Assembly (NCBI GenBank): GCA_964558575.1
Contig: CAZLEQ010000004.1
Coordinates: 28,156 to 92,155, forward strand
DNA: 64,000 nt
Source of the DNA: an uncultured Acidimicrobiaceae bacterium
Lineage (GTDB): Bacteria; Actinomycetota; Acidimicrobiia; Spongiisociales; ZC4RG35
Direction of reading: 5' to 3'
In this document: piece after piece, positions 3,838-64,000 of the stretch
Numbering within the stretch: the first letter of the stretch is position 1
Layout: each line of letters begins with the position of its first letter
The notes under the pieces: model-generated
Seen by the model: only the letters and a program-made list of their open reading frames with translations
Database searches by the model: none
Told to the model about the DNA's origin: nothing
Position numbers and translations under genes: made by a program

Positions 3838-3955
3838 CGGGTACCAACGAGGGTAACCAAACGGGAACGGTGCGAGAAGTGGATGGGCCGTCTTGGGCTG
3901 TCCCCTGCAGTTGCCCGTCCCCTCGGGCAGGGCGTTTCCCATAGGCTGCACCCCT

Positions 3956-4339: not shown

Positions 4340-4354
4340 GCCGAGGAGGATGTG

Positions 4355-4993: not shown

Positions 4994-5009
4994 GACCCGA
5001 GGAGCCGAG

Positions 5010-8188: not shown

Positions 8189-8191
8189 TAT

Positions 8192-9867: not shown

Positions 9868-9877
9868 CTTGTAGGCC

Positions 9878-10822
9878 ATGCGAAAGACGGCTCTGGTCAT
9901 AGCCATGCTCGCTACGGCGTGCAGTCCGGCCGACTCTGCCGACTCCACGACGGAGCCCTCCCCGACATCCACCAGTTCCACGAGCCCCGCCACCACGACG
10001 ACGGCACCGCCTCCCACCACGACCACTGCCCCGACCACGACCACGTCGCCAGGTGACACCACGACCACGACTCTGCTCGAGGGCCATTGGGCTCACGGAC
10101 CCCTGGTGACCACGGAGTTCGGTGCCCTCGGCTGGTGGGATGGCAGCGGGTGGCTGGATGCCGAGAGCGAGGGCGCGTTGCCGGTCGCCGGGGGAGAGGA
10201 CTATCAAGTGATCGTGCTCGACCGGTTGGGCCGGACCACGGGCGGCCCTCAGATCACGGTGTGTGAGCCGCTGGAGCTCATCGGCGTCGAGCTCGCCGAT
10301 CCCGAGCTGCTCGGACAGTTCCCCGGGCCCTATGGCATCGCCATATCCGCTCCATGGGACCTCCAACCCCACTTGTTCGAGACCGTCGCCGACGACGGCA
10401 CCTACGCCGGACATGCCGCACAGCTGCTCTCCGCACGTGGCCTCGACGTTGCCGAGCCCTTCATCAAGCAGCTGTTCCGAACCGACCTCGAGGGGGATGG
10501 CATCAACGAGGTGCTCGTCGTGGCCGAGGAAGTGAGCCCGGGATTCATCATGGAGGAAGGTGACTACTCCATCGCCTTCATGCGCAAGGTGGTAGGCGGT
10601 GAGGTCCAGACCGCGATCCTCGGCGAGACGACGGTCTTCGACGAGATGGACCAGTTCGGGGCGGCTCACTCCTTTGGAGGAGTGGCCGATCTCAATGGCG
10701 ACGGGAAAATGGAGGTCATCGTCAATGCGGCCTTCTTCGAGGGGTTCGCCGTGGAGGTCTGGGAGTATGTGGACGACGACCTGGGGCCCCTCCAGGTCCT
10801 GCAGATGGGATGCGGAAGCTGA
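9878..10822 (+). CDS. secreted lipoprotein of unknown function (Thr/Pro-rich linker, C-terminal beta-rich domain with GDGKMEV motif)
   Basis: Lipobox MLATAC. TTTTAPPPTTTTAPTTTT low-complexity linker. No recognisable catalytic motif. Confidence 0.5.
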   Translation: MRKTALVIAMLATACSPADSADSTTEPSPTSTSSTSPATTTTAPPPTTTTAPTTTTSPGDTTTTTLLEGHWAHGPLVTTEFGALGWWDGSGWLDAESEGALPVAGGEDYQVIVLDRLGRTTGGPQITVCEPLELIGVELADPELLGQFPGPYGIAISAPWDLQPHLFETVADDGTYAGHAAQLLSARGLDVAEPFIKQLFRTDLEGDGINEVLVVAEEVSPGFIMEEGDYSIAFMRKVVGGEVQTAILGETTVFDEMDQFGAAHSFGGVADLNGDGKMEVIVNAAFFEGFAVEVWEYVDDDLGPLQVLQMGCGS

Positions 10823-11229
10823 TGGAGAACCCGTTCGAGGGTCGCCCCACCTTTGTGACACACAGTGGCATCGAGCTCACCGATGCCTCGGTTGACCATT
10901 GCGAAGGTCGTGTCGAAGTGACCCCGACTCATCACCAGCCCTACGGGGTGGTCCACGGTGGTGTCTACTGCACCCTGATCGAGACCCTCGCCTCCACCGG
11001 CGCCGCTCTGTGGGCAATGGAACAAGGAATGGCCGGTGCGGTGGGCCTGACCAACAAGACCGACTTCCTCAAGGCGACCACCGAAGGAGTGCTGCTCGGC
11101 AGGGCTACGCCGATCCACCGCGGGCGAACCCAGCAGCTGTGGCAGGTGGACGTCACCCGGGAAGAAGACGGGAGACTGGTGGCCCAGGGCCAGGTGCGGC
11201 TGCAGAACGTGGCCGGGACCGAGTTCTGA
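10810..11229 (+). CDS. PaaI/4HBT hotdog-fold thioesterase
   Basis: 139 aa. GVVHGGVYCTLIETLAS and RGRTQQLWQVDV typical of the PaaI family. Confidence 0.75.
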   Translation: MRKLMENPFEGRPTFVTHSGIELTDASVDHCEGRVEVTPTHHQPYGVVHGGVYCTLIETLASTGAALWAMEQGMAGAVGLTNKTDFLKATTEGVLLGRATPIHRGRTQQLWQVDVTREEDGRLVAQGQVRLQNVAGTEF

Positions 11230-33500: not shown

Positions 33501-33894
33501 GCATGTACTTGAGCTCGTCCTCGAAGGCGTCGGCGTCGTCGGTCGAGGCGAAGTAACCCTCTTTCTCGCCCCAATGACGCCAGGTGCCGGCGAGACGGTC
33601 GAAGACCTGCTTCGAGGAGCGCTCCGGCCCGGTGACGGGATTGCCGTCCTCGTCCAAGATCTGGTTGCCCTCGTCGTCGACCTGGGGGACACCGGCCTTG
33701 CGGAAGTACTTGGACACCATGATGTCCGACGCCACCTGGCTCCAGCGGGCCGGGATCTCGGCGTCGGTCATCTCGAACACGATCGAACCATCGGGGTTGG
33801 TGATGCGGGAATCTCGGTGCGACCACTCGAACTGGCTGTAGGGGTCGGTTCCGGCCTCCGTGAAGCGTCGGGTGATCCGCAGGCCTTTGCTCAT
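30529..33894 (-). CDS. nrdJ: adenosylcobalamin-dependent (class II) ribonucleoside-diphosphate reductase
   Basis: 1121 aa from MSKGLRITRRFT. RNR catalytic core (NPCSEYMFLDDTACNLASINL, thiyl Cys loop). C-terminal CxxC...CxxC zinc-ribbon (CSNCGHMTVRNGSCYVCLTCG). Confidence 0.92.
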   Translation of the reverse strand: MSKGLRITRRFTEAGTDPYSQFEWSHRDSRITNPDGSIVFEMTDAEIPARWSQVASDIMVSKYFRKAGVPQVDDEGNQILDEDGNPVTGPERSSKQVFDRLAGTWRHWGEKEGYFASTDDADAFEDELKYMLAAQIAAPNSPQWFNTGLNHAYDITGPAQGFWYVDDETGELVESPDSYSRPAPHACFINGVTDDLVNPGGIMDLWLREARIFKFGSGAGSNFSAIRAEGELLSGGGKSSGVMSFLKIGDRAAGAIKSGGTTRRAAKMVILDVDHPDIETFVDWKKIEEEKAKVLIQHGGFPADFNGEAYATVSGQNSNNSVRVTYDFIKAVEEDRDWDLINRTDGSVRRTVTARELWNQIAEAAWACADPGLQFDTTINEWHTSPAGGRINASNPCSEYMFLDDTACNLASINLVRLYDDETGTFDIDAYQHAIRLWTIVLEVSVAMAHFPSKEIAQGSHDYRTLGLGYANLGSLLMRQGIAYDSDEGRAIAGAITSVLTGYSYATSAEVAEVVGPFPKFEENRDAMLRVIRNHRVAAYDGDDYHNISTKVMGIDPESCPEDLLAAARTSWDLALERGEANGYRNAQATVLAPTGTIGLLMDCDTTGVEPDFALVKFKKLAGGGYFKIVNQSVAPALTRLGYAPQEISDIVTYIVGTSSIEGAPHINTDTLLEKGFSEEDILKVQAALPAVFELKHAFNVFTFGEETLQRLGFSVDEYTSWDFDLLRALGFTRQQITEANDHICGRQTIEDAPHIEEKHLSVFDTANKNGKYGTRFIHHNGHIKMMAVAQPFISGAISKTINMPHEVTVEEIEGAYHLSWELGLKAMALYRDGSKAAQPLNSTADEGEGNEDEDEAITAAVEAEKTIHWGNLPAGISPTQAYAQGMKPPRFLLPARRSGFNQEARVGGHKVYLRTGEYEDGTLGEIFIDLAKEGATLKGILSCFAIAVSKGLQYGVPLEEFVDTFTFQTFEPRGMVEGHPNVKMANSIVDYVFRALGVEYLRRDELAQVPPDRESDLPEPPQGLAVEAGVQLELDDAAADSDVDAVRSAVEYLDGPDEDIRAPKREKVSVAAANGDASVANAALSENMGDAPACSNCGHMTVRNGSCYVCLTCGDTTGCS

Positions 33895-33965
33895 GTATTC
33901 CTCCTCGACCGGGGTCCGCCCCTCCCTACCGGGATCTGTCAGGACGGGTTCATTCTCAACTCCAA

Positions 33966-34012
33966 CCACAAGATGTTGTGGTCTGGGGGGAAGTGACCAC
34001 TAGATCTTGTAT
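33966..34012 (-). promoter_or_regulatory. tandem NrdR boxes upstream of nrdJ
   Basis: CCACAAGATGTTGTGG (7-bp perfect arms) and CCACTAGATCTTGTAT, starts 31 bp apart. Matches the NrdR-box consensus acaCwAtATaTwGtgt and tandem spacing. Embedded in an unusually AT-rich leader. Confidence 0.5.
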
Positions 34013-52082: not shown

Positions 52083-52424
52083 CGCCGGCGATGGCGATGA
52101 TCGCCAGCAGAGCGAGGATGACGACGGCGGTCGCTGGTCGCACCACCCGATCGTATGCCTCACCCGGCTCATTTCCCCATTCTGTGCGGGTTCACCGCCA
52201 TGGAGTGCGCAGAGCCCCTCAGAGAACGGTTGTAGGAAGGGTCCCCAGAAAAATGTCGGGGCCCCCGAATGGTGGCGGGGGCCCCGACTACATGAAGGAG
52301 GGTTCTCCACCGTGGGGCGGGCTGGGAGGCTATCCGTTCACATCTTGGGAACGTGCCCTAGATGTGAGGGGAGGAACCACTCCTTCCTGCATGCACCGCC
52401 ATATCGGCCACGGAGAGTGAAATC

Positions 52425-52685
52425 TTGAGAAGTTTATCTGTGAAATTCTTGACCAGAGAAGGCTGCCATCTCTGCGACGAGGCGAGACCGGTCCTGGAGA
52501 AGGTGGCCAGGAGCATGAACGTGACCATCGAGGAGGTCGACATCGACGGCGACGACGAGCTCACCAAGCTCTACGGGCTCAGGGTTCCGGTGGTCCTGGG
52601 CACCCACGATCGGGTCCTCGCCGAAGGGGTCATCGACGATCGCAAGCTGCTGAAGGACGCGCTGAGGGGGGAAGTCGACCTCTAG
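52425..52685 (+). CDS. glutaredoxin-like (DUF836/thioredoxin-fold) small protein
   Basis: FLTREGCHLCDEARPVLE CxxC motif. GGAGAG 7 nt upstream of a TTG start (alternative GTG at 52440). Confidence 0.6.
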   Translation: MRSLSVKFLTREGCHLCDEARPVLEKVARSMNVTIEEVDIDGDDELTKLYGLRVPVVLGTHDRVLAEGVIDDRKLLKDALRGEVDL

Positions 52686-52690
52686 GCCGG

Positions 52691-53815
52691 CTATCCGGAG
52701 AGCCCGACCGAGGCGTCGGCGTCACCCTCGGGTGGCGCCTCTCCGTTCTCGGGGGCTTCCCCGTTTTCGGGTGTCTCCCCGTCTTCGGGTGTCTCCCCGT
52801 CTTCGGTTGGCTCCCCGTCTTCGGGTGTCTCCCCGTCTTCGGGTGTCTCCCCGTCGTCACCGTCGCCCGCGTCCGCGAGACCACAATCGACCAGCGTCTC
52901 GTCTGCGTTCGCACCTCCGAAGCGGACCCGTTCGAAGGCGACCACCGCCCGCAGTTGCTCGTCGGTGAGGGCCTGGTGTCCCGGCATGCCACCGGCCACC
53001 GGCTTGTTGGTGTCTCCGTAGGTGGCTTCGAACCCGGCCGATCCCAGGAGGACCCACTCGACATGGTCCTCACAGGCCCCGAAGGTGGTGAGCACGCCGG
53101 TCATCGCCGGGAAGCTTCCCACCCCTTGCCCATCGCCGCCATGGCAGCCGGCACAGGTCGAAGCCGCGGTCACCGCCCCCGCGTAGAGATCGCCTCCCAG
53201 AGCGATGAAGTCGGTGGTGCCTGGGCCGACTCCTCCGCCGGTGAACTCGGAGCCGTCGCAGTTGACGATCTCCCCGGAGATGATGTCGACTCTCAACTCG
53301 GTTCCCTCGCCACAGGCCCCCGTCGCCGAGCCGCCCAATGTGAACAGAGCGAACAACGGTGCGACCAGGAGCAGTCCCACCAGCCAGCGGGGGAGGTCGA
53401 AATTGGTCCTCTCCCTGATGCCGGCGGTGGGGACGGTCACCACCTCCGGCAGGTGGGCCGCCTCTGCGGCGGTGACCTCCGCTGGGGTTGGGGCCCGGGT
53501 GGGGGCTGTAGCGGCAGCGGCGGCAGGGGCAGGGGCCTCCGCCGGCTCCGGGGTCTCGATGACCGGCTCGGGTGCCGCCGGCTCCTCGGCGGCGTCCGGC
53601 TCCTCGGCTCTGGCCGTGTCCTCCGTCTCTATCTGCGGCTGATCTGCCTCCCCCGGACTCGCCTCGCTCGAAGGGGAGGAGACCGCCTCGCCTCCGGCCC
53701 AGGCGGCGAGGATCTCGTCCACGTTCGCCCCGGTCTCGGCGGCGCGCGCCTCCGCCGAGCGCTGTACCAGCGTCTCGGGCAGACCCATCGCCTCGGCTGC
53801 GGCGCTGAGGCTCAC
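52691..53815 (-). CDS. membrane-anchored monoheme c-type cytochrome, CcoO-like, with long cytoplasmic N-terminal extension and acidic C-terminal repeats
   Basis: 374 aa. N-terminus MSLSAAAEAMGLPETLVQRSAEARAAETGANVDEILAAWAGG. One TM. CAGCH heme motif. C-terminal (DGETPE)n tail. Confidence 0.7.
   Translation of the reverse strand: MSLSAAAEAMGLPETLVQRSAEARAAETGANVDEILAAWAGGEAVSSPSSEASPGEADQPQIETEDTARAEEPDAAEEPAAPEPVIETPEPAEAPAPAAAAATAPTRAPTPAEVTAAEAAHLPEVVTVPTAGIRERTNFDLPRWLVGLLLVAPLFALFTLGGSATGACGEGTELRVDIISGEIVNCDGSEFTGGGVGPGTTDFIALGGDLYAGAVTAASTCAGCHGGDGQGVGSFPAMTGVLTTFGACEDHVEWVLLGSAGFEATYGDTNKPVAGGMPGHQALTDEQLRAVVAFERVRFGGANADETLVDCGLADAGDGDDGETPEDGETPEDGEPTEDGETPEDGETPENGEAPENGEAPPEGDADASVGLSG
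52741..52866. repeat. 18-bp tandem repeat (about 7 units, CCCCGTCTTCGGGTGTCT) inside the cytochrome c gene
   Basis: Read directly from sequence. Encodes DGETPEDGETPEDGEPTEDGETPEDGETPENGEAPENGEAP. Confidence 0.7.
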
Positions 53816-54591
53816 GATCCTCCTCCAGGAGCAGATTCGCTGAGATAGGCGACGAGGTCGTCGAGGTCCTCGGCGCTGAGATCGTGCCCCGGGTGCCCAC
53901 CGAACCCCCCGATGATGGCCTCGAATTGCGAAGTGGTGACTCTCGAGCCCACATCGGAGAGGTCAGGGCCGAGTCGCCTCGTGCCGAGGATCTGGTTGGT
54001 GTCGTTGAGTGTCACAGGGCCCAGTCCCACATCGGCTACCACCGGTCGCACCATCTGGGTGTGGCACGCCACACAGCCGGTGACGGCATAGACTTCCTGG
54101 CCACGGAGGGCTCCAGCCGAGAAGGCGATCTCCGAAGTGCGGGCTCCAGGGTTGTCGGTGGGGATCGATGGCCCCACCAGTCCCACCATGACGACGATGA
54201 TGAAGAGCCCGACGATGCCGGCGAGCACCGCCATCGGGTTGTCCTCGACTCCCACCAGCACGGGTGGCTTGTAGGGACCTGCGGGGACAGTCGGAGTGGG
54301 TGCTTCGGCCCGCTTCTCGGGGGTCTCGATCGCTACCTCCGGGGGCTTCGGCTCCTCGGCGGTGCCCGGTTCCTCGGCGACGGGCGTCTCCTCCGTCTCG
54401 GCCTGCGGCTGATCGACCACCTCCGGACTCGCCTCGCTCGAAGGGGAGGAGATCGCCTCGCCTCCGGCCCAGGCGGCGAGGATGTCGTCCACGTTCGCCC
54501 CGGTCTCGGCGGCGCGGGCCTCTGCCGAGCGCTGCACCAGCGTCTCGGGCAGACCCATGGCCTGGGCGGCGGCGGAGAGCTGGTCACTCAT
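53812..54591 (-). CDS. membrane-anchored monoheme c-type cytochrome, CcoO-like (paralog)
   Basis: 259 aa from MSDQLSAAAQAMGLPETLVQRSAEARAAETGANVDDILAAWAGG. One TM. CVACH heme motif. GTRRLGPDLSDVGSR and LVAYL CcoO-like elements. ATGA overlaps on both sides. Confidence 0.7.
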   Translation of the reverse strand: MSDQLSAAAQAMGLPETLVQRSAEARAAETGANVDDILAAWAGGEAISSPSSEASPEVVDQPQAETEETPVAEEPGTAEEPKPPEVAIETPEKRAEAPTPTVPAGPYKPPVLVGVEDNPMAVLAGIVGLFIIVVMVGLVGPSIPTDNPGARTSEIAFSAGALRGQEVYAVTGCVACHTQMVRPVVADVGLGPVTLNDTNQILGTRRLGPDLSDVGSRVTTSQFEAIIGGFGGHPGHDLSAEDLDDLVAYLSESAPGGGS

Positions 54592-56066
54592 CGGGCTCCT
54601 CCGACCTCTCGGCTCACCAGCACCTCCTGGGGGATCGCCCTCCCCCGGACGACGGTTCCGAAGATGATCCCCACATAGCCGAGGATCCCCAAGAACAGGA
54701 CGATCCCGAAGAGCACGCCGATCAGGACCAGAGTGTCGTAGGTGGCGCCGACGCCGCTCGCCCACCCCTCGCCGGTGTCAACATAGGCGGCGCTGTTGGA
54801 CCCGGCGATCCACGAATAGCCGGAGAGTATTCCGGCTGCACCGAGCGAGATGAGCAGACCCACGGCGCCCGAGATGGTTAGACGCTGGAATCTGCGTGCC
54901 TTGGCCTTGGTCTCCAGTTCCTTACCCACCATGCGGGGAAGGGCGGCGAAGCTGACACTCGACACGAGAAGGGCCCCGATGCCGGTGAGGGAGACGTATT
55001 CGACGGCCTCCCAGAAGGCGGTCAACGACGTCACCGAGCCCACTGACCGGAATCCGGCGAGGGCGGCTACGGCGGCGACACCGAACGTCAGGTAGAGACC
55101 GAGGACTCCGGAGAGCACTCCCGGCTTCTCACCCAGTCGAGACCACGATCCCTCCAGTGTCATCGAGACGTTGGCGGCATTGGCCAGTGCTCCGATCGGC
55201 CAGGCGAGGCCGAGGGCCGCGGCCACACCGGCGACCCAGCCGGGGCCGGGCCCGAAGAGCAACTGGGCGGCTCCCCACCAGACCGCTGCGAAACCCAGCG
55301 ACCAGAACCCGACCAGGGCGAGCTGACGGCTGGCCAAGGGGATGTCCAGCTCCTTGACCGTCGTGTAGTACACGAGACCCGAGCCCACCGTGACCAGGAA
55401 CATGGTCACGAACCCGGCGAGGAAGAACGTCTCGGCATACGCGATGGTCACCGCCGAAGCAGCCGGCACCTCGGAGGCCAGGTGGGCGACATAGAGGAGG
55501 GGCAGCCAAATGACACCACCGAGCACGAACCACAGAGTCACGAAGCTGCGCTGCTCCTCGCGTCTGCGAATGGTGTTGACCGTCACCAGGGCGGGCACGA
55601 ACAGCACCGCAGCCAGAGGTAGGTCGAGCCACCAGGCGAGACCGAGCGGCTGACGGCCGTTGCCGAGGCCGAAGGAGATGGCGAGCACGCCCAGGGCGGT
55701 GAGGCCGGCCATTCCGAGGAGGCCGAGCCCGGCGATGCCGGCCCCCCAAAGCCGCGCCCCGGTGAGTCGGGGAAGCACGTAGTAGATCCCGCCGACCAGC
55801 GAAACGGCACCGAAGCCGATCATGAGGGTCAGGTTGGCGGCGCTCTCCAAGCGCCCGTACGGGAGGGGCAAGAGCGATCCAAAGCGGAGGGCGATCAAGG
55901 AGAGGAGCTGGAGGGCGCCTCCCAGGACCAGGAAGACCCCACCCACCAGCAAATGGGTGACTGCGAGGCGGTCTTCGACGCTTCCGCCGCCGAGCAGGGC
56001 TCGCATGTCTGCTGTTCGGGTGTCAGTCAACCGTCTTCCTCGCACCAGAAGGGACGGCGGGAGCAT
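54588..56066 (-). CDS. cbb3-type cytochrome oxidase subunit I (CcoN) homologue lacking the canonical His ligand set
   Basis: 492 aa, 12 TM. GAVSLVGGIYYVLPRLTGARLW aligns with CcoN [23 protein letters not shown], but the TM2 heme His is Asn. Only two His residues occur in the whole protein. Confidence 0.6.
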   Translation of the reverse strand: MLPPSLLVRGRRLTDTRTADMRALLGGGSVEDRLAVTHLLVGGVFLVLGGALQLLSLIALRFGSLLPLPYGRLESAANLTLMIGFGAVSLVGGIYYVLPRLTGARLWGAGIAGLGLLGMAGLTALGVLAISFGLGNGRQPLGLAWWLDLPLAAVLFVPALVTVNTIRRREEQRSFVTLWFVLGGVIWLPLLYVAHLASEVPAASAVTIAYAETFFLAGFVTMFLVTVGSGLVYYTTVKELDIPLASRQLALVGFWSLGFAAVWWGAAQLLFGPGPGWVAGVAAALGLAWPIGALANAANVSMTLEGSWSRLGEKPGVLSGVLGLYLTFGVAAVAALAGFRSVGSVTSLTAFWEAVEYVSLTGIGALLVSSVSFAALPRMVGKELETKAKARRFQRLTISGAVGLLISLGAAGILSGYSWIAGSNSAAYVDTGEGWASGVGATYDTLVLIGVLFGIVLFLGILGYVGIIFGTVVRGRAIPQEVLVSREVGGAR

Positions 56067-56204
56067 AACTACTTCGTGGATTCAGTCCGTCACTGCATTG
56101 GGGACTGTCGGTGTCACGACCGCCGGGTTCTCGAACCAGGACCCACCTGTGGTAGAAACGAACCGACAAACGTCTTTTCCGCGTCTGGGATCTACGTAAA
56201 GAAC

Positions 56205-56834
56205 ATGTATCGCCTCGCAGAATTAAGCGACCTCCGCCGCAGGAGGATCGGCGGCGGCCTGCTCTTCCTCGGTTTGGCGGGCCTCGTACTCGGGGTCATC
56301 TGGATTCACTGGTCGTCGATCCCCGAGACCGAGTCGGTCAACGGTGTCGAGGTCCCGGTCGTCGTCGACTACCTCAACTGGTGGCCGCGCGGGATCCTCT
56401 GGAAGGGGGTCGGGTATCTGGTAGTGCTCGGAGCGACCACCATGACCTTGGTCGGGGCCACCTTCCTCTGGGTGCTCAATCAGAGAATGACCTGGGCCCG
56501 TGCCACCGTGGCCGCCATCATCGCCTGGGTAGCCCTGGTGTTCTACTTCGGGATGGTTCCCTCGGAGTGGCTCAACTACGCCCAGACCGACCTCGATTGG
56601 TCCTCGCAGCGGGCCGCCATCACCATTCCCCCGTTCCTGGTCCTGGGCAACACCGTCGACATCAGTTGGGCCGTGATCAAAGACTCCATCCAGATGGGCT
56701 ACAGCCTCGGCTTGCTCGGTTTCGCCGCCGTCCTCGCCATCCAGATGCAGAAGATGAAGGAGGGGCGGCCCCCCAGCGCCGCACCCGCCGAGAAGAAGTC
56801 GCCATACGGCCGCCCGCTGGTGAGGGGGAACTGA
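56205..56834 (+). CDS. 4-TM membrane protein, first gene of the Rieske/cytochrome b operon
   Basis: 209 aa from MYRLAELSDLRRRRIGGGLLFLGL. No family recognised. Its stop overlaps the ferredoxin ATG. Confidence 0.45.
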   Translation: MYRLAELSDLRRRRIGGGLLFLGLAGLVLGVIWIHWSSIPETESVNGVEVPVVVDYLNWWPRGILWKGVGYLVVLGATTMTLVGATFLWVLNQRMTWARATVAAIIAWVALVFYFGMVPSEWLNYAQTDLDWSSQRAAITIPPFLVLGNTVDISWAVIKDSIQMGYSLGLLGFAAVLAIQMQKMKEGRPPSAAPAEKKSPYGRPLVRGN

Positions 56835-57283
56835 TGCCCAAGGGAGTCATCGACGAGACCCCGCCGATCAGGGACGACTACCAGCTCGCGGTGGTCGAGG
56901 GTGACTACTTCGCCGACAAATTGCGCCCCAAGCAGTTCCTGCACATCGACCAGTCGGAGTGCATCCTGTGTGAAGGATGTGTCGACATCTGCCCGTGGAA
57001 GTGCATCCACTACCTGTCGCTCGACGCCATCGCCGAGGCGGTCAACGTGGACCACCCCGGGGAGGACACCCAGAACATGGGTTTCTTCATCGTCGACGAG
57101 GACGAGTGCACCCGGTGCGCGCTGTGTATCGACAGATGCCCGACCAACGTCATCACCTTGGGCAAGTTCGAAGGCTCGCTCGCCGAACAGGCGCAAGAGC
57201 TGGGTCTCGACCGTCGTCCCTGGGACTTGGACACCGGGCAGCGTGACTTCAAGAATGGTTACTCGTACGGGATGCGCTGGTAG
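56834..57283 (+). CDS. 2x[4Fe-4S] ferredoxin-like protein
   Basis: CILCEGCVDICP and CTRCALCIDRCP cluster motifs. Confidence 0.75.
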   Translation: MPKGVIDETPPIRDDYQLAVVEGDYFADKLRPKQFLHIDQSECILCEGCVDICPWKCIHYLSLDAIAEAVNVDHPGEDTQNMGFFIVDEDECTRCALCIDRCPTNVITLGKFEGSLAEQAQELGLDRRPWDLDTGQRDFKNGYSYGMRW

Positions 57284-57299
57284 GGAGGCGTAGGGATCC

Positions 57300-58076
57300 A
57301 TGGCCAACGGAAACGGCAGAGTCGGACTGAGAGAGCGAGTAAGGGAGGGCGCGGAGAAGGTCTGGAACTCACAGGTCGCCGAGTCGATCATGCGTCCCGG
57401 CTCACCGTTCAAACAGGGATACTCGGACAGCCCGAGGAACCGCTCCTACGTGGTGATGAACAACGTGCTCTATCACCTCCACCCGGTGAAGGTGAAGCGG
57501 CACGGGGTGAAGCTCTCCTACACCCTGTGCCTCGGGGGCTTGAGCTTCTTTCTCTTCATCCTGCTCACCATCACCGGCATCTTCCTGATGTTCTATTACA
57601 CCCCGACCGCGGAACTCGCCTACTCGGACATGGAGGCCCTGTCGACGGACGTGGCCTTCGGGTCGCTGGTGAGGAACATGCATCGGTGGGGAGCCCACCT
57701 GATGGTGTTGTCGGTTTTCCTCCACATGAGCCGGGTGTTCTATCACGGGGCCTACAAACCGCCGCGTGAGTTCAACTGGGTGGTGGGCGTGGTCCTTCTC
57801 TTCCTCACCCTGTTCCTCTCGTTCTCCGGCTATCTGCTGCCCTGGGACCAGCTGGCGCTGTGGGCGGTCACCGTGGGCTCCAACATGGCCGGTTTCTCAC
57901 CGGTGATCGGTGAGCAGGTCAAGTTCGCCCTCCTCGCCGGGGTGGAGGTGACCGGGGCGACGTTGCTCCGCTTCTATGTGCTCCATGTGCTCGCCTTCCC
58001 GTTCATCCTGGTCATCTTCCTGGCGGTCCACTTCTGGCGGGTCCGCAAGGACGGCGGAATCTCGGGGCCCTTGTAA
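57300..58076 (+). CDS. cytochrome b6-type (split cytochrome b, N-terminal heme-binding half)
   Basis: 258 aa, four TM. Bis-His pairs ([12 protein letters not shown] and [22 protein letters not shown]). PetB/QcrB N-domain pattern. Confidence 0.85.
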
Positions 58077-58085
58077 GGAGTATCG

Positions 58086-59147
58086 ATGGTGGAGATCCCA
58101 GAGAGCCTGCTGAGACGATCGGCCGAAGCCAAGGCCAAGGCCTTGGGCGTGCCGGTCGAACAGGTCCTCGCCGAGATGAAGGGTGAGGGCCCGCCGGTCG
58201 AGCCGCCCCAATTCGAACCCGAGGGCCCGGACACCGAGGACGTGGCCCTCGAGGACGATGCCGCCGAGCCCGTGGAAGAGGTGCCCGCCGACGACGAGGC
58301 AGAAGCCCAGTCGCCCGAGGTCTCCTCGGACATCGAACAGGACGTCTTGCCCACCGAACCCAAGGAAGCCACCGCCCCGCCGGAGGAGACGCCGCGGGCG
58401 ATGGTCGCCGAGGCGGGAGCGGTCGCAGTCGCCGAAGCCGATGAGACCGAGGAAGCCGAGCAGGACGATGACGGTGACGACGGCGAGGAGTCCCCGGAAG
58501 TGGACGTCGAGGACCTGGAGGAAGGCTCCCCGGGGAACGGCTCAGGAAACGGCGCCGGCGACGGCAAGGTGGCCGCGATGGTCAGCCCCCGGCCCTCGGT
58601 ACCTCCGACCGGGCTTCCCGAGGGAGTCCGCACCCAGCGTCTCCTCACGGTGGTCAAGGCCAGGGCGATCCAGAATGTCAAGGCGGAGCCGACCGACAAG
58701 GTGAACACCTGGCCCCATCTCATGCTCATGGAGTTCGGTGCCCTGCTCGCCATCACCGGCCTGCTGGTGATCATGTCGGTGGTGATCCACTCGCCGTTGC
58801 TGGAGCCGGCCAACTTCAACGCCACTCCCAACCCCTCCAAGGCGCCGTGGTACTTCCTCGGGCTCCAGGAACTGCTCAGCTACTTCGATCCGCAGATCGC
58901 CGGGGTCATGGTCCCGCTGTTCATCGGGATGATCGGGTTCATGCTGATTCCCTACGTCGACAAGAATCCCTCCACCCGGCCCACCGACCGCAAGTTCGCC
59001 ATCATGCTCTACTCGTTCTTCCTGGCGGGATCGGCGACCCTGACCATCATCGGCGTTCTGTTCCGGGGTCAAGGGTTCAATTTCACCTTTCCGTGGCGGG
59101 ACGGAGTGTTCTTCGACGACCTGAAAGACTGGGTGCACTTCGAATGA
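58086..59147 (+). CDS. cytochrome bc complex subunit IV (PetD-like) with long acidic N-terminal extension
   Basis: AAGGAG SD. C-terminal 3-TM PetD-like domain (NTWPHLMLMEFG...KAPWYFLGLQELL). N-terminus MVEIPESLLRRSAEAKAKALGVPVEQVLAEMKG followed by an E/D/P-rich region. Confidence 0.8.
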   Translation: MVEIPESLLRRSAEAKAKALGVPVEQVLAEMKGEGPPVEPPQFEPEGPDTEDVALEDDAAEPVEEVPADDEAEAQSPEVSSDIEQDVLPTEPKEATAPPEETPRAMVAEAGAVAVAEADETEEAEQDDDGDDGEESPEVDVEDLEEGSPGNGSGNGAGDGKVAAMVSPRPSVPPTGLPEGVRTQRLLTVVKARAIQNVKAEPTDKVNTWPHLMLMEFGALLAITGLLVIMSVVIHSPLLEPANFNATPNPSKAPWYFLGLQELLSYFDPQIAGVMVPLFIGMIGFMLIPYVDKNPSTRPTDRKFAIMLYSFFLAGSATLTIIGVLFRGQGFNFTFPWRDGVFFDDLKDWVHFE

Positions 59148-60037
59148 CGTTCGCCAACTGGATTCTCGTCGCCGTCGCGGTATTCGCCATCCTCGGAGCG
59201 GTTGGCGCCTTCACCATCGCCTTTCGTCGCACCAGGGCCGAGCGGCCCGATCCCACGGCGGGGGTCTCCGATGAGACCCGACGGGCCGACCGGTCGATGA
59301 TTGGGGTGCGCGTCGACCCGATCCCCGTGCCCGAGGCGGAACCAGATGAAGTCGACGAGACCCCTGAAGTCGGAGAAGCCGCCGAGGGGGAGCCGTCCGA
59401 GGGCAAGGAGGAGAGGGAACTGGTTGGCGCCGGGGCCGCGGTCGAGGTCGTCGAGGCCCAGCGTGTCGTCGAAGTCAGCCCCGAGGAGTCCGGTGTCAGC
59501 CGGCGTCAGTTCTTCAACCGCGCCATCGGCGCCACCTTCGGGTTGTTTCTCGGTCTGCAAGGTGTCTACTACCTGGCCTTCTTCTGGCCGAAGCTGAGCG
59601 GCGGCTTCGGCACCGACGTCGATGCCGGGTCCCTCGAGGCTCTCTCTGCCCAGACCGTCAATCCCGATGGTTCGGTGGTGCCGGTCTTCGTTCCCGAGGC
59701 GCGGGCCTACATCGTCCCCGCCCCCGACACCCTCTCCAGTCAGTACGAAGGGCGCGACGTCGCCGCCGGCGGTTTCATGGCCCTTTTCCAGCGATGCGTC
59801 CACCTGGGATGCCGGGTGCCGTGGTGCTCCACCTCGATCGGGTTCGAATGCCCCTGCCATGGGTCCCGGTACAACTCCATCGGCGAATACTTCTCGGGCC
59901 CGGCGCCGAGGAACCTCGACCGTTTCGTGGTCGAGGTCAGAGAGGATCGCTTCATAGTCCGCACTGGCACCATCATCGAGACGCCCCGCGCTCCCCGAGC
60001 GAGTGTCTCGTATCCACAGGGCCCGAGTTGCATCTGA
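59144..60037 (+). CDS. Rieske [2Fe-2S] iron-sulfur protein (Tat substrate)
   Basis: ATGA overlap with subunit IV. TM/Tat motif SRRQFFNRAIG. CVHLGC...CPCHGS cluster boxes. Confidence 0.85.
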   Translation: MTFANWILVAVAVFAILGAVGAFTIAFRRTRAERPDPTAGVSDETRRADRSMIGVRVDPIPVPEAEPDEVDETPEVGEAAEGEPSEGKEERELVGAGAAVEVVEAQRVVEVSPEESGVSRRQFFNRAIGATFGLFLGLQGVYYLAFFWPKLSGGFGTDVDAGSLEALSAQTVNPDGSVVPVFVPEARAYIVPAPDTLSSQYEGRDVAAGGFMALFQRCVHLGCRVPWCSTSIGFECPCHGSRYNSIGEYFSGPAPRNLDRFVVEVREDRFIVRTGTIIETPRAPRASVSYPQGPSCI

Positions 60038-60059
60038 TGGTCGAGATGGAGGCCGGGAA

Positions 60060-61766
60060 GTGACCGCCGACGTAGTCATCGTCCTCGCCGTCGTCGCCGG
60101 GATCATCTGGCTCGGTTTGATGCTGGTCTCGGCGCTGAGGAACCGGGGTGGGGTGGAGGAAGTCGCTCCCAACCTCAAGCCCGGCATCGACGACCAACAG
60201 CTCGAGACCAGGCGGCTCGAGGGAGGACAGAAGGCGGCCATCGCCTTCTCCGCCTTCCTCGCCATCTCACTGCCGCTCTACTTCCTCGGCGAGAACAGCC
60301 GCCAAGAGGGGTTCGTGGAGGAGTTCGCAGAGGCCTCCGTCGAGCGGGGTGAGCATCTGGTCGAGGAGTTCGCCTGTTTCGACTGCCACGGCCCGCTCGG
60401 CTCCGGCGGCTCGGCGCCGTTCGTCGAGCAGCGATCGGGCATCAGCGTCTCGTGGGCGGCTCCCCGGCTCGATGACATCCTTTATCGATACGACGAGGAC
60501 GCGGTCAACTTCTGGATCACCTATGGCCGGGGCAATACGCCGATGCCGGCATGGGGTCTCGCCGGGGGTGGCCCGATGAACGAGAATCAGGTCGAAGACG
60601 TGGTCAACTATCTGGCGACCATCCAGATACCCCAGCAGGAGGCGGTCGACCACACCCCGCTCCTGATCGACCAGGAGCTCGGGCGGCTCGCCAATGCTGC
60701 GGGTACCGTCGAGCAGGCGATCATCAACCAGGCTCAGACGCTCGCCGAGATCGACCAGGCGCCCGAGGATCTCGCCGTCATCGGGCCTCTTGCCGACCGG
60801 GCGGTCGAGATCGTCGACAATCCGGACGACGGCATCGACACCGACGGTGACGGGCTCTCCGATGCTGCCGAGGCGGAGTTGTCGGATATCTCGGCACGGG
60901 CCGTGGAGCACTTCCGGGTGATCGAGCCCGTGACCCTCGACCCCGAGACTCCCGATGCCGAGCTGGTCGACGCAGTCCTCGCCGAGATGGAGGCAGCTCT
61001 CGACACCAATCCCGTATTCGAGATCTACATCAACCGGATCGAGGCAGCCCTCGAGGGCGACGAGATCAGTGAGGAGTCCCCAGACACCGATGGCGACGGA
61101 ATCTCGGATGCCGCGGAGGGTGCGATCAGTGGTCTGATCTCGGAGGCGAGCTCGGCCACCGTCCCCTCGGGGGTCACCCAGATCGACCTCGATCCGACCA
61201 ACCCCGAGACCACTGGTGACCCCGACCTCAGAACGGCCAATTCGATGGTCGGAGGGCTCGAGTCGATTGCCATCAACCTCAGGGTCGCCGTCGAGAACGT
61301 CGAGCGAATCCGACCCCAGCAGGAGGCCGGTCTCCAATTTCTGGTCGATTCCGCCGAGAGGGCGGCCTGGGAGGTCGATTTCGCCGGGGTCGCCGCGGCG
61401 ATGGGCGGTTCCGAGGACGACGCCCGGCGGGCGGTTGCGCTATTCAACGCCTACTGCGCCCGGTGCCACACCGCAGGTTTCTCCGCCGGCATGGCCTACA
61501 CCCAGGAGATCGGCTCCGGCGGATTCGGCCCCGCTCTCTGGGACGGGAGACCGGTGGTCCAGTTCGGCGACGAACCGGCAGACCCGGATCAGACCGACCT
61601 GCTCGTCGACTTCATAATCAATGGATCTCAACCCGAGACGCCCTACGGGCTCAACGGGTTCGGGTCGGGTCGGATGCCCGCGTTCGGCGCCGTCCTCGAC
61701 CAGGACGACATCGACCTCCTCGCCCGCTATCTCCGCGCCGGCAATCTGAACGGAATGGAGGACTAG
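60060..61766 (+). CDS. membrane-anchored diheme c-type cytochrome with an inserted domain of about 330 aa carrying thrombospondin-type-3-like Ca-binding repeats
   Basis: GTG start with GGAGG SD. N-terminal TM. Heme motifs CFDCH and CARCH. DTDGDGLSDAAE and DTDGDGISDAAE (DxDxDGxxD) loops between them. Confidence 0.7.
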   Translation: MTADVVIVLAVVAGIIWLGLMLVSALRNRGGVEEVAPNLKPGIDDQQLETRRLEGGQKAAIAFSAFLAISLPLYFLGENSRQEGFVEEFAEASVERGEHLVEEFACFDCHGPLGSGGSAPFVEQRSGISVSWAAPRLDDILYRYDEDAVNFWITYGRGNTPMPAWGLAGGGPMNENQVEDVVNYLATIQIPQQEAVDHTPLLIDQELGRLANAAGTVEQAIINQAQTLAEIDQAPEDLAVIGPLADRAVEIVDNPDDGIDTDGDGLSDAAEAELSDISARAVEHFRVIEPVTLDPETPDAELVDAVLAEMEAALDTNPVFEIYINRIEAALEGDEISEESPDTDGDGISDAAEGAISGLISEASSATVPSGVTQIDLDPTNPETTGDPDLRTANSMVGGLESIAINLRVAVENVERIRPQQEAGLQFLVDSAERAAWEVDFAGVAAAMGGSEDDARRAVALFNAYCARCHTAGFSAGMAYTQEIGSGGFGPALWDGRPVVQFGDEPADPDQTDLLVDFIINGSQPETPYGLNGFGSGRMPAFGAVLDQDDIDLLARYLRAGNLNGMED

Positions 61767-61769
61767 GCG

Positions 61770-62129
61770 ATGTTTCGTGAGCTCTTCAGATCGCTTCTCT
61801 CGGCCAACGTGTTCGTCACCGGCATCATCCTGACCGCGGTCTCGGTGTTGCTCTTCTTCGGCTCCATCTATCTCTTCAACCACACGAACCTGGGCCGACG
61901 TCTCGGATTCCTGGTCACCGGTGCGGCCGTCTTCGGCTGGTTGGCCCTCAACTCGATGCTGTTCGTCGTCTACGCGCCACGCGGCCCGATCCCCGAGAGC
62001 ATCGAAGGTCTCAACGCCTTCGAGATCCGCATCATCCCCATCACCTACCTGATGGTGTCCCTGGTGTTGTTCCTGGTGTTCCTGGTCGCCCTCCACCAAT
62101 ACGAGGAGACCAAGGAAGCCGGGGGGTAG
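61770..62129 (+). CDS. small 3-TM membrane protein, last gene of the Rieske/cytochrome b operon
   Basis: 119 aa. Starts 3 nt after the cytochrome c stop. No family recognised. Confidence 0.4.
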   Translation: MFRELFRSLLSANVFVTGIILTAVSVLLFFGSIYLFNHTNLGRRLGFLVTGAAVFGWLALNSMLFVVYAPRGPIPESIEGLNAFEIRIIPITYLMVSLVLFLVFLVALHQYEETKEAGG

Positions 62130-62219
62130 CCCAGACGCGAACCCTGGGTTCGGGGCCCCGTTCAGCGAAGTCCAGCGCCCTCAGTTCGGGGGCCCATCCC
62201 CGTTGGAGGTAGATGGCCG

Positions 62220-62828
62220 TTACCCGTAGTAGGAGAGGATCTGCAGCTCGGTGCTCAGGTCGACCTGACGGACCGGGACCTCGTCGGGCACGGACACCCG
62301 GACCGGGGCGAAGTTGAGGATCGACGAGATCCCCGCCGCCACCAGCCCATCGGCCACTCTCTGCGCCGCGCTGGCCGGGACCGCCAGTATGGCCATGTCG
62401 AACAGACCTCGGCGGCAGTCGCCGTCGATGCGATTCGAATCTCTCACCTCCAGCTCGCCGACGTGTCGACCGATCCGCTTCGGGTCGACGTCGTACATGG
62501 CCACCACGTCGAAACCCCGCTGACTCAGGCCGTGGTATCGGGCGAGAGCCGTCCCGAGGTTTCCGGCCCCGACGATTGCCACCCGTCGCCTCCCTTCGAT
62601 ACCCAGCTCCTTCTGGATCCGGGAGCGGAGATCGGAGACCGAGTATCCGACACCTCTGGTCCCCTGGAAACCGAGGTCCGAGAGGTCGCGTCGCACGTTT
62701 GCCGGGTTGACACCGGCGGCGTCGGCGAGCTCACCCGAGCTGATGGTTCGCTGCGACTCGCGGATGTCGTCGAGGAGCCGGAGGTATCTCGGCATCCGGG
62801 AGACGGTGGCGCGTGAGAGCCCGCTCAT
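62220..62828 (-). CDS. rex: redox-sensing transcriptional repressor Rex
   Basis: SRATVSRMPRYLRLL winged-helix, SSGELADAAGVNPANVRRDLSDLGFQGTRGVGYSV, NAD(H) Rossmann VAIVGAGNLGTALARY. Alternative start at 62867. Confidence 0.8.
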   Translation of the reverse strand: MSGLSRATVSRMPRYLRLLDDIRESQRTISSGELADAAGVNPANVRRDLSDLGFQGTRGVGYSVSDLRSRIQKELGIEGRRRVAIVGAGNLGTALARYHGLSQRGFDVVAMYDVDPKRIGRHVGELEVRDSNRIDGDCRRGLFDMAILAVPASAAQRVADGLVAAGISSILNFAPVRVSVPDEVPVRQVDLSTELQILSYYG

Positions 62829-62891
62829 CTCGAGGAACGTTACAGCCGCACTTCCTCGTTTCCCCATTCCGCAGATACCATCCGGAGCTCC

Positions 62892-64000
62892 ATGTCCTCT
62901 CCCCGAGTCCTCGTCGTCGGTGGCGGCCCCGCCGGGTCGGCCGCCGCCTACTGGATGGCGCGGGACGGACTCGACGTCACCCTCGTAGAGAAGAAGGAAT
63001 ACCCCAGGGAGAAGACATGCGGCGACGGGCTCACCCCGAGGGCGATCCTGCAGCTCCAGGACATCGGCTTCGACTTCGACGTCCCCGAGTTCCACCGCAT
63101 CACCGGGTTGCGCTCCTACGCCGGCGACGACTTGATGATCGAAATGCCCTGGCCAGACCACAGTCGCTTCCCCAATTGGGGTGGTGTCATCAGGCGGCGG
63201 GACCTCGATCAGCAGGTGGCCCGCTTGGCGGAGAAGGAAGGGGTTCGAATCCGCGAGAAGACCACCGCCACCCCGGTGATCGAAGACGGCCGGCTCGTCT
63301 CGGTGACCCTGACCAACGGCGGTGGTGAGGAGATGGTCACCCCCGACATCACCATCATCGCCGATGGTTCGATGAACCGGTTCGGCCGCGATCTGGGGAC
63401 CAGCAGACGCCGTGACTACCCCATGGGCATGGCGGCACGCGGCTACTTCTCCTCTCCTCGGTCCGACGACCCGTTCCTCGAGAGCCAGCTCGACCTGCGC
63501 GACTCATCCGGGGCGACGATGCCCGGGTACGGCTGGGTCTTCCCCCTCGGTGACGGCACCGTCAACGTCGGAGTGGGACTCCTCTCCACGTTCAAGAGGT
63601 GGAAGGACGTCAACACCACCCACATGATGAACGACTACGTCGCCTCGGCACCCGACTATTGGGGTCTCAGCGAAGAGTCGAAGTTGAGCAAGCCCATGGG
63701 CGGCAAGCTCACCATGTCGTACTCGAAGAGCCCGTTGGTGGGGTCCAACTGGCTGACCATCGGAGACGCCGCCGGGGCGATCAACCCCTGGAACGGGGAA
63801 GGCATCTCGTATGCCTACGAGACCGGTCGCATCGCCGCCGGATACGTGAGCGAGTCGATGGGCAGTGAAGACCTCGGCCTGCTCCGTCGCTATCCCCGGC
63901 GTCTCGAGGACGAGTACGGGCTCTACTACAAGATGGCCCGCATCTTCGTGAAGCTGATCGGAAACCCGTCGGTTATGCGGACCCTCGCTCACACCGGCCT
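62892..64000 (+). CDS. geranylgeranyl reductase family FAD-dependent oxidoreductase (partial, runs off window end)
   Basis: VLVVGGGPAGSAAAYWMARDGLDVTLVEKK FAD-binding GxGxxG. CGDGLTP. No stop before the window end. Confidence 0.7.
   Translation, partial: MSSPRVLVVGGGPAGSAAAYWMARDGLDVTLVEKKEYPREKTCGDGLTPRAILQLQDIGFDFDVPEFHRITGLRSYAGDDLMIEMPWPDHSRFPNWGGVIRRRDLDQQVARLAEKEGVRIREKTTATPVIEDGRLVSVTLTNGGGEEMVTPDITIIADGSMNRFGRDLGTSRRRDYPMGMAARGYFSSPRSDDPFLESQLDLRDSSGATMPGYGWVFPLGDGTVNVGVGLLSTFKRWKDVNTTHMMNDYVASAPDYWGLSEESKLSKPMGGKLTMSYSKSPLVGSNWLTIGDAAGAINPWNGEGISYAYETGRIAAGYVSESMGSEDLGLLRRYPRRLEDEYGLYYKMARIFVKLIGNPSVMRTLAHTG

Follow-up and report, generated by a model that had tools for sequence, protein, structure and literature searches.

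A stretch of 64,000 nucleotides from an uncultured Acidimicrobiaceae bacterium (hereafter the window) contains, at positions 52691-62129, a respiratory gene cluster in which a relative of the catalytic subunit of cbb3 oxidases, without any of its metal ligands, is encoded head-to-head with a Rieske/cytochrome b module. The cluster comprises ten genuine open reading frames (ORFs) in two divergent operons. Judged from its sequence, the oxidase relative, a CcoN-like protein, is very unlikely to be able to act as a haem-copper oxidase, and we are confident that the plus-strand operon encodes a b6-type Rieske/cytochrome b complex. At the level of genes the two operons are closely tied, both by a synteny that is invariant down to 31% CcoN identity and by an N-terminal motif common to the two. 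A preliminary description of the window had listed the same ten genes on the same strands and at the same coordinates, and this inventory stands: all are present, their domains and motifs agree (hydropathy, CxxCH counts, RRQFF), and the named assignments are all backed by Pfam and NCBIfam.

The CcoN-like protein (54588-56030, minus strand; 480 residues, about 12 transmembrane (TM) helices) matches the Pfam family COX1 (E = 3e-16), and such proteins go by the database name of 'cbb3-type cytochrome c oxidase subunit I'. In a residue-by-residue comparison with CcoN chains of solved structure, the motifs RPLH, YGHN, GPHHLH and GHVH are found replaced by ESAA, LAGF, GAAQLL and EAVEY, respectively, and the six ligand positions (two for haem b, one for haem b3 and three for CuB) are occupied by A, A, A, Q, V and Y. 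The initial observation that the oxidase-like partner has lost its metal ligands thus holds for all six His positions; the whole protein contains two histidines, and the loss is also seen in an alignment of 99 sequences. Since none of the six His ligands is present, no O2 reduction is expected from this protein, which also fails the curated ccoN model TIGR00780 (95.8 bits, for a cutoff of 583.15).

The predicted fold is nevertheless that of a subunit I. An AlphaFold2 (AF2) model built with 37 homologues has a predicted template modelling score (pTM) of 0.84, and Foldseek aligns it with CcoN of 9g83, 9g6b, 6xkw, 8smr and 3mk7 with TM-scores of 0.78-0.80, at about 20% identity. This is a better fit than to NorB (0.74-0.76) or to A/B-type subunit I (0.63-0.73), and the model together with the Foldseek result places the protein in the 12-TM, C-family subunit-I fold. 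The top fold matches are the structurally solved bc1-cbb3 supercomplexes of proteobacteria (6xkw, 8smr, 9g83). Against four orthologues, the ratio of nonsynonymous to synonymous substitution rates (dN/dS) is 0.09-0.14, in the same range as for the Rieske protein and subunit IV. A pseudogene or a gene in decay was considered, and was ruled out by this ratio, the intact ORFs and the class-wide conservation.

Relatives of the CcoN-like protein were retrieved from 1.84 billion cluster representatives, among which 551 were found, and the 99 near-full-length ones (representatives at 50% identity) were used for comparison. Of these 99 sequences, 63 lack His at every one of the six ligand columns and 20 retain it at all of them. 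The replacing residues vary between subgroups (AAAQVY, FQIRTE, AARFFV, ANARQW and others) and are unrelated across the ligand-less family, which argues that there is no conserved substitute ligand. The residues that at least 80% of the ligand-less members have in common are structural Gly, Pro, Trp, Arg and Tyr residues also present in true CcoN, and the alignment reveals no new conserved polar or charged intramembrane residues across the ligand-less family. A rough neighbour-joining tree, computed without support values, groups almost all the ligand-less sequences together and apart from those with six His, a pattern that fits a single ancient loss of the ligands. Many members of the ligand-less family are CcoN-CcoO fusions of about 640-680 residues with one CxxCH.

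In order to describe the distribution of the cluster, one genome per GTDB species was scanned, yielding 45 loci, all of them in metagenome-assembled genomes (MAGs). Most are labelled Acidimicrobiia, some more broadly (Actinomycetota, actinobacterium or 'bacterium'), and some carry apparently wrong labels (Acidobacteriota, Boseongicola); nearly all the named homologues of the CcoN-like protein also come from 'Acidimicrobiia bacterium' MAGs. A survey of the whole gene order, proposed as a check in the preliminary description, was thereby carried out, and the ten genes occur in the same order in every sufficiently long locus among the 45, so that the cluster is not a product of chance. The layout is retained at 31-34% CcoN identity (loci L046 and L049) and in forms with a CcoN-CcoO fusion (L051 and L052), and the flanks of these four distant loci contain, in various combinations, Rex, the nuo operon, resB/ccsA, SAM hydroxide adenosyltransferase and CLP1_P. 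The cluster is apparently vertically inherited and widely conserved in Acidimicrobiia, and the view of it as unusual has to be abandoned in so far as it is not peculiar to one genome.

The minus-strand operon continues with two monohaem cytochromes c. The CcoO-like protein (53812-54591, minus strand; Pfam FixO, E = 3.9e-9) is encoded directly after the CcoN-like gene, in the position of CcoO, and consists of the N-terminal cytoplasmic motif, an acidic linker, one TM helix and a FixO-type haem domain with one CxxCH (CVACH). It aligns with solved CcoO chains at E ~1e-6 and keeps the GC..CH.QM.RP and GPDL..VG.R motifs; its score is below the curated ccoO cutoff (33.6 versus 200.65). At the distal-ligand position a conserved His (G.HP) is found in the clade of the window (L001-L045), and a Met (MPSY) in L046, L051 and L052. 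This substitution suggests that the haem of the window clade may be bis-His-coordinated and of lower potential.

The second cytochrome (52691-53815, minus strand; Pfam Cytochrom_C, E = 1.6e-9), which stands in the position of CcoP and is conserved in 42 loci, has the same motif and acidic linker, one TM helix, a CAGCH site whose Met ligand lies in GGMPGH, and a C-terminal tail rich in Glu, Asp and Pro. It is not a dihaem CcoP: it contains a single CxxCH, and its match to ccoP is weak (E = 1.6e-5; 24.4 bits for a cutoff of 179.95). Previously it had been presented as a second CcoO-like cytochrome c, which is appropriate for its N-terminal 45 residues, nearly identical to those of the CcoO-like protein, but not for its haem domain, which is of a generic class-I or weakly CcoP-like type. 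Both junctions of the operon overlap, and the ATGA coupling attributed to all of them is found between the CcoN-like and CcoO-like genes (54588-54591), whereas the other junction is GTGA (53812-53815).

With cbb3 oxidases (PDB 3mk7, 6xkw, 8smr, 9g83) this operon shares the N-O-(P-like) gene order with overlapping stop and start codons, the 12-helix subunit-I fold and the CcoO haem c motifs, and the bc1-cbb3 supercomplexes are a precedent, at the level of structure, for an association with a Rieske/cytochrome b complex. In contrast, the CcoN-like protein is devoid of the six His, the third subunit has a single haem site, a cytoplasmic motif and an acidic linker are added to both cytochromes, the distal ligand of the CcoO-like haem is apparently His, and the window proteins miss the curated ccoN and ccoO cutoffs widely. 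A ccoQ gene was not recognised, and no ccoGHIS genes are present among the neighbours examined.

The N-terminal motif comprises about 35 residues, with the consensus [LI]PExL[VL]xRSAEA[RK]A..G..V[DE][DE][VI]LA, and is present on three proteins, subunit IV of the plus operon (58086-58187, plus strand) and the two cytochromes of the minus operon (about 54460-54582 and about 53690-53815, minus strand). It is followed by a long Asp/Glu/Pro-rich linker that precedes the first TM helix, an arrangement that by topology places it in the cytoplasm. A profile built from the three copies matches only these three N-termini in the 64-kb window, and in the other loci that bear the motif it picks out the same three genes. 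In L050 and L051, where CcoO is fused to CcoN, the motif is found instead on subunit IV and/or the second cytochrome, and in L046 and L051 it occurs two to three times in tandem on subunit IV. The same profile search found no motif in L048 and in L076-type loci, and only a marginal one in L052 (E = 7.5e-5). The motif belongs to no Pfam family, and in a set of 5.8 billion proteins its profile recovered only short fragments (42-84 residues), nearly all the named ones from Acidimicrobiia. A role in docking or tethering is a guess on our part. Also on the cytoplasmic side, subunit IV, the Rieske protein and both minus-strand cytochromes (window 52691-60037) have Asp/Glu/Pro-rich segments of low complexity, 60-170 residues long, and these four segments would form an unusually acidic 'brush' around the complex.

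In the plus-strand operon, cytochrome b6 (57300-58076, plus strand, as all genes of this operon; 258 residues; Pfam Cytochrome_B, E = 7e-47) has four TM helices with both haem His pairs, and the adjacent gene encodes a three-TM subunit IV (58086-59147; 353 residues; Pfam Cytochrom_B_C), so that the split cytochrome b reported at first is real. Besides the four haem-b His, cytochrome b6 has a Cys in the sequence TLCLGG, at the position of haem ci, and a conserved N-terminal extension of about 50 residues. Its best matches among solved structures are the cyanobacterial and plant cytochromes b6 (E ~1e-45), with the Cys and all the His aligned (TLCLGG versus YCLGG), and the CxGG motif is also kept in L048 and L076; on these sequence features, the protein probably binds haem ci. 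It is far from the actinobacterial QcrB (111.8 bits with bc1_QcrB_actin, for a cutoff of 500), and a look-up of its exact sequence gave no match. The NCBIfam model ExtP is passed by 7 bits (297, for a cutoff of 290). ExtP was rejected as a functional label, given that ExtQ fails (55.8 versus 150) and the other ext genes are absent; because this pass occurs without an ext context, automatic pipelines may misname the b6 genes of Acidimicrobiia.

Subunit IV starts with the N-terminal motif and an acidic linker of about 170 residues, followed by the three TM helices and the Qo motif KAPWYF, which is of the APWY type (NPSKAPWYFLGLQELL). The Rieske [2Fe-2S] protein (59144-60037; 297 residues; Pfam Rieske and PetC-type NCBIfam matches) comprises an extra N-terminal TM helix, an acidic cytoplasmic loop, a twin-arginine motif (RRQFF, at residue 120) with its anchor helix, and the two cluster-binding boxes CVHLGC and CPCHGS (CxHxGC/CxCHGS), and thus has the features of a Rieske protein exported by the twin-arginine translocation (Tat) pathway. 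Its closest solved chains are PetC of the b6f complex (E ~1e-14) and the anammox Rieske proteins (9rk3, 9rk4). The membrane-anchored dihaem cytochrome c (60003-61766; 587 residues; Pfam Cytochrome_CBB3 twice, Cytochrom_C and TSP3_bac) has two class-I domains, with CFDCH at residue 125 and CARCH at residue 485, and between them an insert of about 260 residues with TSP3-type calcium-binding repeats, which is missing in distant loci (the protein of L052, for example, has 320 residues). No solved relative was found by sequence. The start codon of this gene is uncertain; with the start adopted here, the gene and that of the Rieske protein share 35 nucleotides.

The 2x[4Fe-4S] protein (56834-57283; 149 residues; Pfam Fer4 families, motifs CILCEGCVDICP and CTRCALCIDRCP) has its nearest solved chains in FwdF/polyferredoxin and NuoI-type proteins, and in having neither TM helix nor signal sequence it is expected on the cytoplasmic side. 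Together with cytochrome b6 it is the most conserved product of the cluster (86-98% identity, dN/dS 0.03-0.07). The operon is bounded by two membrane proteins for which no Pfam or NCBIfam match appears even at E values up to 10, in line with the earlier statement that several subunits are unnamed. The first, tm4 (56205-56834; 209 residues, four hydrophobic segments), has a start backed by homologues of 209-210 residues, a conserved C-terminal SPYGRPLV tail and a shorter, 2-TM version in distant lineages. Its homologues number 797, every named one a 'hypothetical protein' from Acidimicrobiia, and its AF2 model, from a 26-sequence alignment, is poor (predicted local distance difference test score of 61, pTM 0.41). 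The last, tm3 (61770-62129; 119 residues, three hydrophobic segments), is 71-97% identical in more than 30 loci, and in L046, L049, L051 and L052 a small gene without Pfam match occupies its position.

Kao and Hunte (2014; PMC4122944) defined an APWY clade of cytochromes b that are split and carry a CxGG motif; it has members in Deltaproteobacteria, Chloroflexi, Nitrospirales, Planctomycetes, two deep Firmicutes and Actinobacteria. The split-b Actinobacteria in that work are three Rubrobacteridae strains and Ilumatobacter coccineum, an isolate of the Acidimicrobiia, and their representatives belong to one of two clades, PEWY-cyt c or APWY. None of the APWY complexes had been characterised as of 2014, and reverse operation was proposed for them. 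The b6/APWY part of the window cluster is a new member of this known but uncharacterised clade. It has in common with other APWY complexes, including ExtOPQ of Geobacter, the b6 plus subunit IV split, the APWY motif, the CxGG Cys and a b6f-like Rieske protein, and it differs in the haem-ci motif (LCLGG versus the usual WCMGG) and in its additional parts: the 2x[4Fe-4S] protein, the two membrane subunits of no named family, the dihaem cytochrome c with its calcium-binding insert and the obligate partner derived from a cbb3 oxidase. The Geobacter ext cluster, which serves selenite/tellurite reduction, has the multihaem cytochromes ExtKLMNS (12 haems in ExtM), the porin ExtI and the rhodanese ExtH (PMC5877670); a multihaem, porin or rhodanese context is absent in the window, and the cluster is not of this selenite/tellurite reduction type.

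The similarities to the cyanobacterial and chloroplast b6f complex are the four haem His, the haem-ci Cys, the three-TM subunit IV and an n-side that faces a ferredoxin. However, a dihaem class-I cytochrome c replaces cytochrome f, the Qo motif is APWY and not PEWY, and the Fe-S protein is encoded as a subunit, in place of a soluble ferredoxin/FNR partner; moreover, this organism is not photosynthetic. No family matches to cytochrome f or to PetG, PetL, PetM or PetN were obtained in the window with Pfam and NCBIfam.

The actinobacterial QcrCAB-CtaCDEF supercomplex (PDB 7q21, 6adq) comes from the same phylum and also has a dihaem cytochrome c as built-in carrier with no soluble cytochrome c, a Rieske protein with extra N-terminal TM helices and Tat export, and a hard-wired electron path from complex III to complex IV. 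Here, in contrast, cytochrome b is split into b6 and subunit IV and is not a long QcrB, the QcrA score is 26.6 versus 275, the gene order differs, and the adjacent 'oxidase' is a C-family shell without cofactors and not an aa3 enzyme. The contrast with the normal actinobacterial qcrCAB, drawn already when the cluster was first noticed, is correct, and for cytochrome b it had been recorded before (PMC4122944). A last group of related systems are the anammox Rieske/cytochrome b complexes with a cytoplasmic-side NAD(P) oxidoreductase subunit, for which bifurcation towards NAD(P)H has been proposed (PMC12954380). Those of Kuenenia (R/b-2, R/b-3) are similar in their split, b6-type cytochrome and in a proposed extra redox subunit on the cytoplasmic side, whereas the extra subunit of the window, a small 2x[4Fe-4S] protein, contains neither an NAD(P) nor a flavin domain, multihaem or HAO-like partners are missing, and the genomic setting is aerobic and respiratory.

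Distant relatives of the cluster reveal what may accompany the ligand-less CcoN. Within one subclade, the part fused to its C-terminus differs: L052 carries a FixO haem domain there and L048 a type-1 copper cupredoxin, and the domain attached to the ligand-less CcoN is an interchangeable one-electron carrier. In L048 the fusion, composed of CcoN, extra helices and the cupredoxin, is followed directly by COX2 with an intact CuA site and a CxxCH, and then by the start of an A-type-like COX1. In L114 an unfused ligand-less CcoN lies immediately upstream of a COX2 with its own cupredoxin and an intact CuA motif, and again the start of COX1. Both COX1 genes are cut by the contig end, and only their first haem-a His motif could be checked.

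A metagenome scan with the CcoN-cupredoxin fusion (P0157) matched only the generic cupredoxin domain and retrieved no further fusions, but it brought up a sister lineage (L076, L077, L081, L087, L096 and L098). In this lineage an operon for a small TM protein, the Fe-S protein, b6, subunit IV (APWY), Rieske protein and cytochrome c (hereafter b6c operon, a name that we also use for the plus-strand operon of the window) stands head-to-head with a complete caa3 operon, formed by COX2, COX1, COX3, a small gene, CtaG and a membrane-anchored di-cupredoxin protein. A ligand-less CcoN is absent both from the 5-6 kb between these operons and from within the caa3 operon. The pairing with a real caa3 oxidase identifies the slot opposite the b6c operon as one for an oxidase or acceptor. 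The sister-lineage loci have 67-73% GC, and in L076 the paired operons extend over 58-10960.

A second, independent case of a degenerate subunit I was observed in L054 (2480-4162, plus strand), this time A-type and COX1-like: the haem-a His motif FTMHG is kept, and GHPEVY, HH and HFH are lost. Downstream are a COX3-like protein and a multi-TM cupredoxin protein (4206-4865 and about 4850-5872), followed by a genuine COX2 and a COX1-like gene.

We propose that the minus-strand module is a scaffold with one-electron carriers placed between the b6c-type complex III and a real oxidase, a reading for which the arguments seem to us evenly balanced. The plus operon would provide cytochrome b6 (with haems bL, bH and probably ci), subunit IV, a Tat-exported Rieske protein and a dihaem cytochrome c in the place of cytochrome f or c1. 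This complex would oxidise a quinol, possibly menaquinol, and pass the electrons to the c-type haems on the outer face of the membrane; the use of menaquinone is known from the chemotaxonomy of Acidimicrobiia. The 2x[4Fe-4S] protein would probably be held by the 4-TM protein at the cytoplasmic face, near the Qi/haem-ci side. The minus operon would descend from a ccoNOP oxidase operon in which the catalytic subunit lost haem b, haem b3 and CuB, and its 12-helix shell would have been kept as a membrane scaffold for the CcoO-type haem c and the second haem c, or for a cupredoxin in other lineages. These carriers could constitute a fixed one-electron relay from the b6c complex to a genuine caa3-type oxidase, most likely inside a supercomplex. 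We infer the relay itself, the part played in it by the Fe-S subunit, the direction of electron flow, the final acceptor in the window genome and the physical association of the two modules, and with the latter the supercomplex suggested in the preliminary description.

Several points weigh against the relay. In L115 (1104-10886) a ligand-less CcoN and a short CcoO are found with the b6c operon absent, next to an 871-residue multihaem cytochrome, a 596-residue polyferredoxin (cNMP-binding), an 867-residue flavoprotein (FHA) and CcmE, with the nuo operon following, so that the partnership is not universal. Neither the 64-kb window nor, in the 45 close loci, the 10 kb to either side of the cluster contains a genuine terminal oxidase, and a search for cta genes and extra cytochrome b paralogues in the window and in L001-L052 found cta only in L048; an acceptor for the relay is therefore deduced from distant relatives only (L048 and L114). 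The apparent His in place of Met as distal ligand of the CcoO-like haem would lower its potential, a poorer fit to a downhill relay towards an aa3-type oxidase. The CcoN tree, in addition, is only a rough neighbour-joining one lacking support values, and the relay model does not explain the Fe-S subunit. A broader formulation can be put forward only tentatively, as a possibility that we would not yet favour: throughout the Acidimicrobiia, a cofactor-less cbb3 subunit I may serve as the structural core of a previously undescribed supercomplex, in which exchangeable carriers link a b6c complex III, with a built-in cytoplasmic 2x[4Fe-4S] protein that exchanges electrons with the Qi/haem-ci site, to an aa3-type oxidase, with the N-terminal domain of about 35 residues helping to tether subunits of the two operons.

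The Fe-S subunit is central to another explanation, which partly overlaps with the relay and which we consider unlikely, namely that of a bifurcating or reverse-running complex. Were it to bifurcate, which seems improbable, the Qo site would send one electron to the c-type haems and the other, via bL, bH and ci, to the Fe-S protein and a low-potential cytoplasmic acceptor. In the reverse version, also improbable, a cytoplasmic reductant and periplasmic donors would reduce the quinone. In such schemes the cbb3-derived module would be no more than a high-potential sink or an entry wire. The conservation of the Fe-S protein, the highest in the cluster together with that of b6, and its cytoplasmic side speak in favour of such schemes, as does the presence of the haem-ci Cys and the b6 N-terminal extension on that same side. 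They also agree with the reverse operation proposed for APWY complexes (PMC4122944) and with the anammox bifurcation proposal (PMC12954380), the window Rieske protein being close to the anammox ones. However, Pfam and NCBIfam find no NAD(P)- or flavin-binding subunit in the cluster, and the sister lineages pair the same module with an ordinary caa3 oxidase. Moreover, the neighbouring genes are housekeeping respiratory ones (nuo, Rex, cytochrome c biogenesis), in hosts that are presumably largely aerobic heterotrophs, and the complex resembles a main complex III more than a specialised module.

A 12-helix bundle that remains under purifying selection with no cofactor ligands could also have a non-redox function, as a channel for ions or protons, a chaperone for the assembly or stability of the b6c complex, or a helper in the handling of haem or cytochrome c. 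Its gene lies directly downstream of the cytochrome c biogenesis genes resB/ccsA in three lineages, but the ccsBA adjacency is more simply explained by the maturation needs of the many c-type cytochromes of the cluster. We judge such a function distinctly improbable: the membrane interior shows no conserved polar or charged residues that would mark a channel, and a haem c or cupredoxin carrier, superfluous for a pure channel or chaperone, is always alongside or fused.

It is very doubtful that the two operons are functionally independent and their head-to-head position merely inherited. The whole neighbourhood is syntenic (Rex, SAM_HAT, CLP1_P, YbjN, glycosyltransferase, asparaginase II), so the adjacency may be passive, and the ligand-less CcoN/CcoO pair of L115 is not beside a b6c operon. 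Against this, the N-terminal motif is found only on subunit IV and the two minus-strand cytochromes, the pairing persists where the flanks differ (L048, L051, L052), and both operons rely on c-type haems for electron transfer at the same membrane face. Finally, that the CcoN-like protein is still a catalytic haem-copper enzyme with non-His ligands is hardly credible, since the conserved acidic and aromatic residues at the former sites (AFWEAVEY, with W340 invariant and E341 near-invariant among the 37 close homologues) give way to unrelated residues at the six positions across the ligand-less family and the ccoN model is missed by a wide margin (95.8 bits for a cutoff of 583); no haem-copper oxidase devoid of all six His is known to us.

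In the literature, no account was found of a ligand-less CcoN family, or of the paired cluster under another name, in a coverage that leaves most subscription journals outside. What appears to be new is the cofactor-less cbb3 partner found throughout the class, together with its fusions and the N-terminal motif common to both operons. A haem-copper oxidase shell deprived of all cofactors but maintained by purifying selection in an entire class would be a clear example of the reuse of a respiratory enzyme as a structural or electron-wiring subunit. The inactive peptidase 'core' proteins of mitochondrial complex III are a comparable reuse in spirit. There are also consequences for annotation, as the 'cbb3 oxidase' annotations of Acidimicrobiia are likely a systematic misannotation. 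A metagenome study, for instance, credits Actinobacteriota/Acidimicrobiia genomes with cbb3 oxidases (PMC8357290), and if published calls of this kind rest on the ligand-less family, the high-affinity, microaerobic respiration deduced from them would be unfounded for a lineage abundant in marine, soil, sludge and mine-water environments. A b6-type complex with an encoded Fe-S subunit would, in turn, offer an aerobic system for the study of APWY-clade complexes, possibly in cultured relatives if they carry the cluster, and the same complex could be used to learn if the cytoplasmic side of a b6-type complex is a point of entry or exit for electrons.

The two operons are separated by an intergenic region (56031-56204) in which an alignment of 14 orthologous regions, one per species, displays two invariant blocks, CCACCTGTGGTAGAAAC (plus strand, about 56133-56150) and the reverse complement of GTTATGCTCCCGCCG (about 56056-56070). 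These are probably the two back-to-back core promoters. The CcoN-like gene starts at a TTG (56030) that is invariant in 14 loci, with GAGGAAG just 5' of it; this start is eight codons upstream of the first ATG, and the homologues possess the eight extra residues. A possible CCGTC...GACGG hairpin surrounds the CcoN Shine-Dalgarno sequence, with some compensatory changes (CCGAC...GTCGG in L003 and L009). An Rfam scan of 52300-62400 returned nothing meaningful.

Just past tm3, a Rex-type redox-sensing repressor (Put_DNA-bind_N and CoA_binding domains) is encoded at 62220-62900 on the minus strand, and the gene is also present in L046, L049 and L051. The divergent intergenic region contains no Rex-operator-like repeat (TGTGAA-N6-TTCACA, at most three mismatches) and the window-wide counts are at chance level, so that direct control by Rex is unsupported. 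Besides Rex, the neighbours in the window include SAM_HAT, CLP1_P, CAP and asparaginase II. A glutaredoxin-like DUF836 protein with a CxxC motif (52425-52685, plus strand) is transcribed towards the end of the minus operon; the corresponding place in L046 is taken by an unannotated 82-residue gene. A FAD_binding_3 gene, geranylgeranyl-reductase-like, lies between the CcoN-containing and nuo operons in L051 (12882-14144), L052 (12915-14138) and L115 (11004-12344), and may encode a menaquinone side-chain reductase. Elsewhere in the window, two tandem PDZ S41 peptidases (5397-8695, minus strand) and a 1146-residue class II ribonucleotide reductase with a TSCPD domain (30529-33969, minus strand) look like ordinary housekeeping content.

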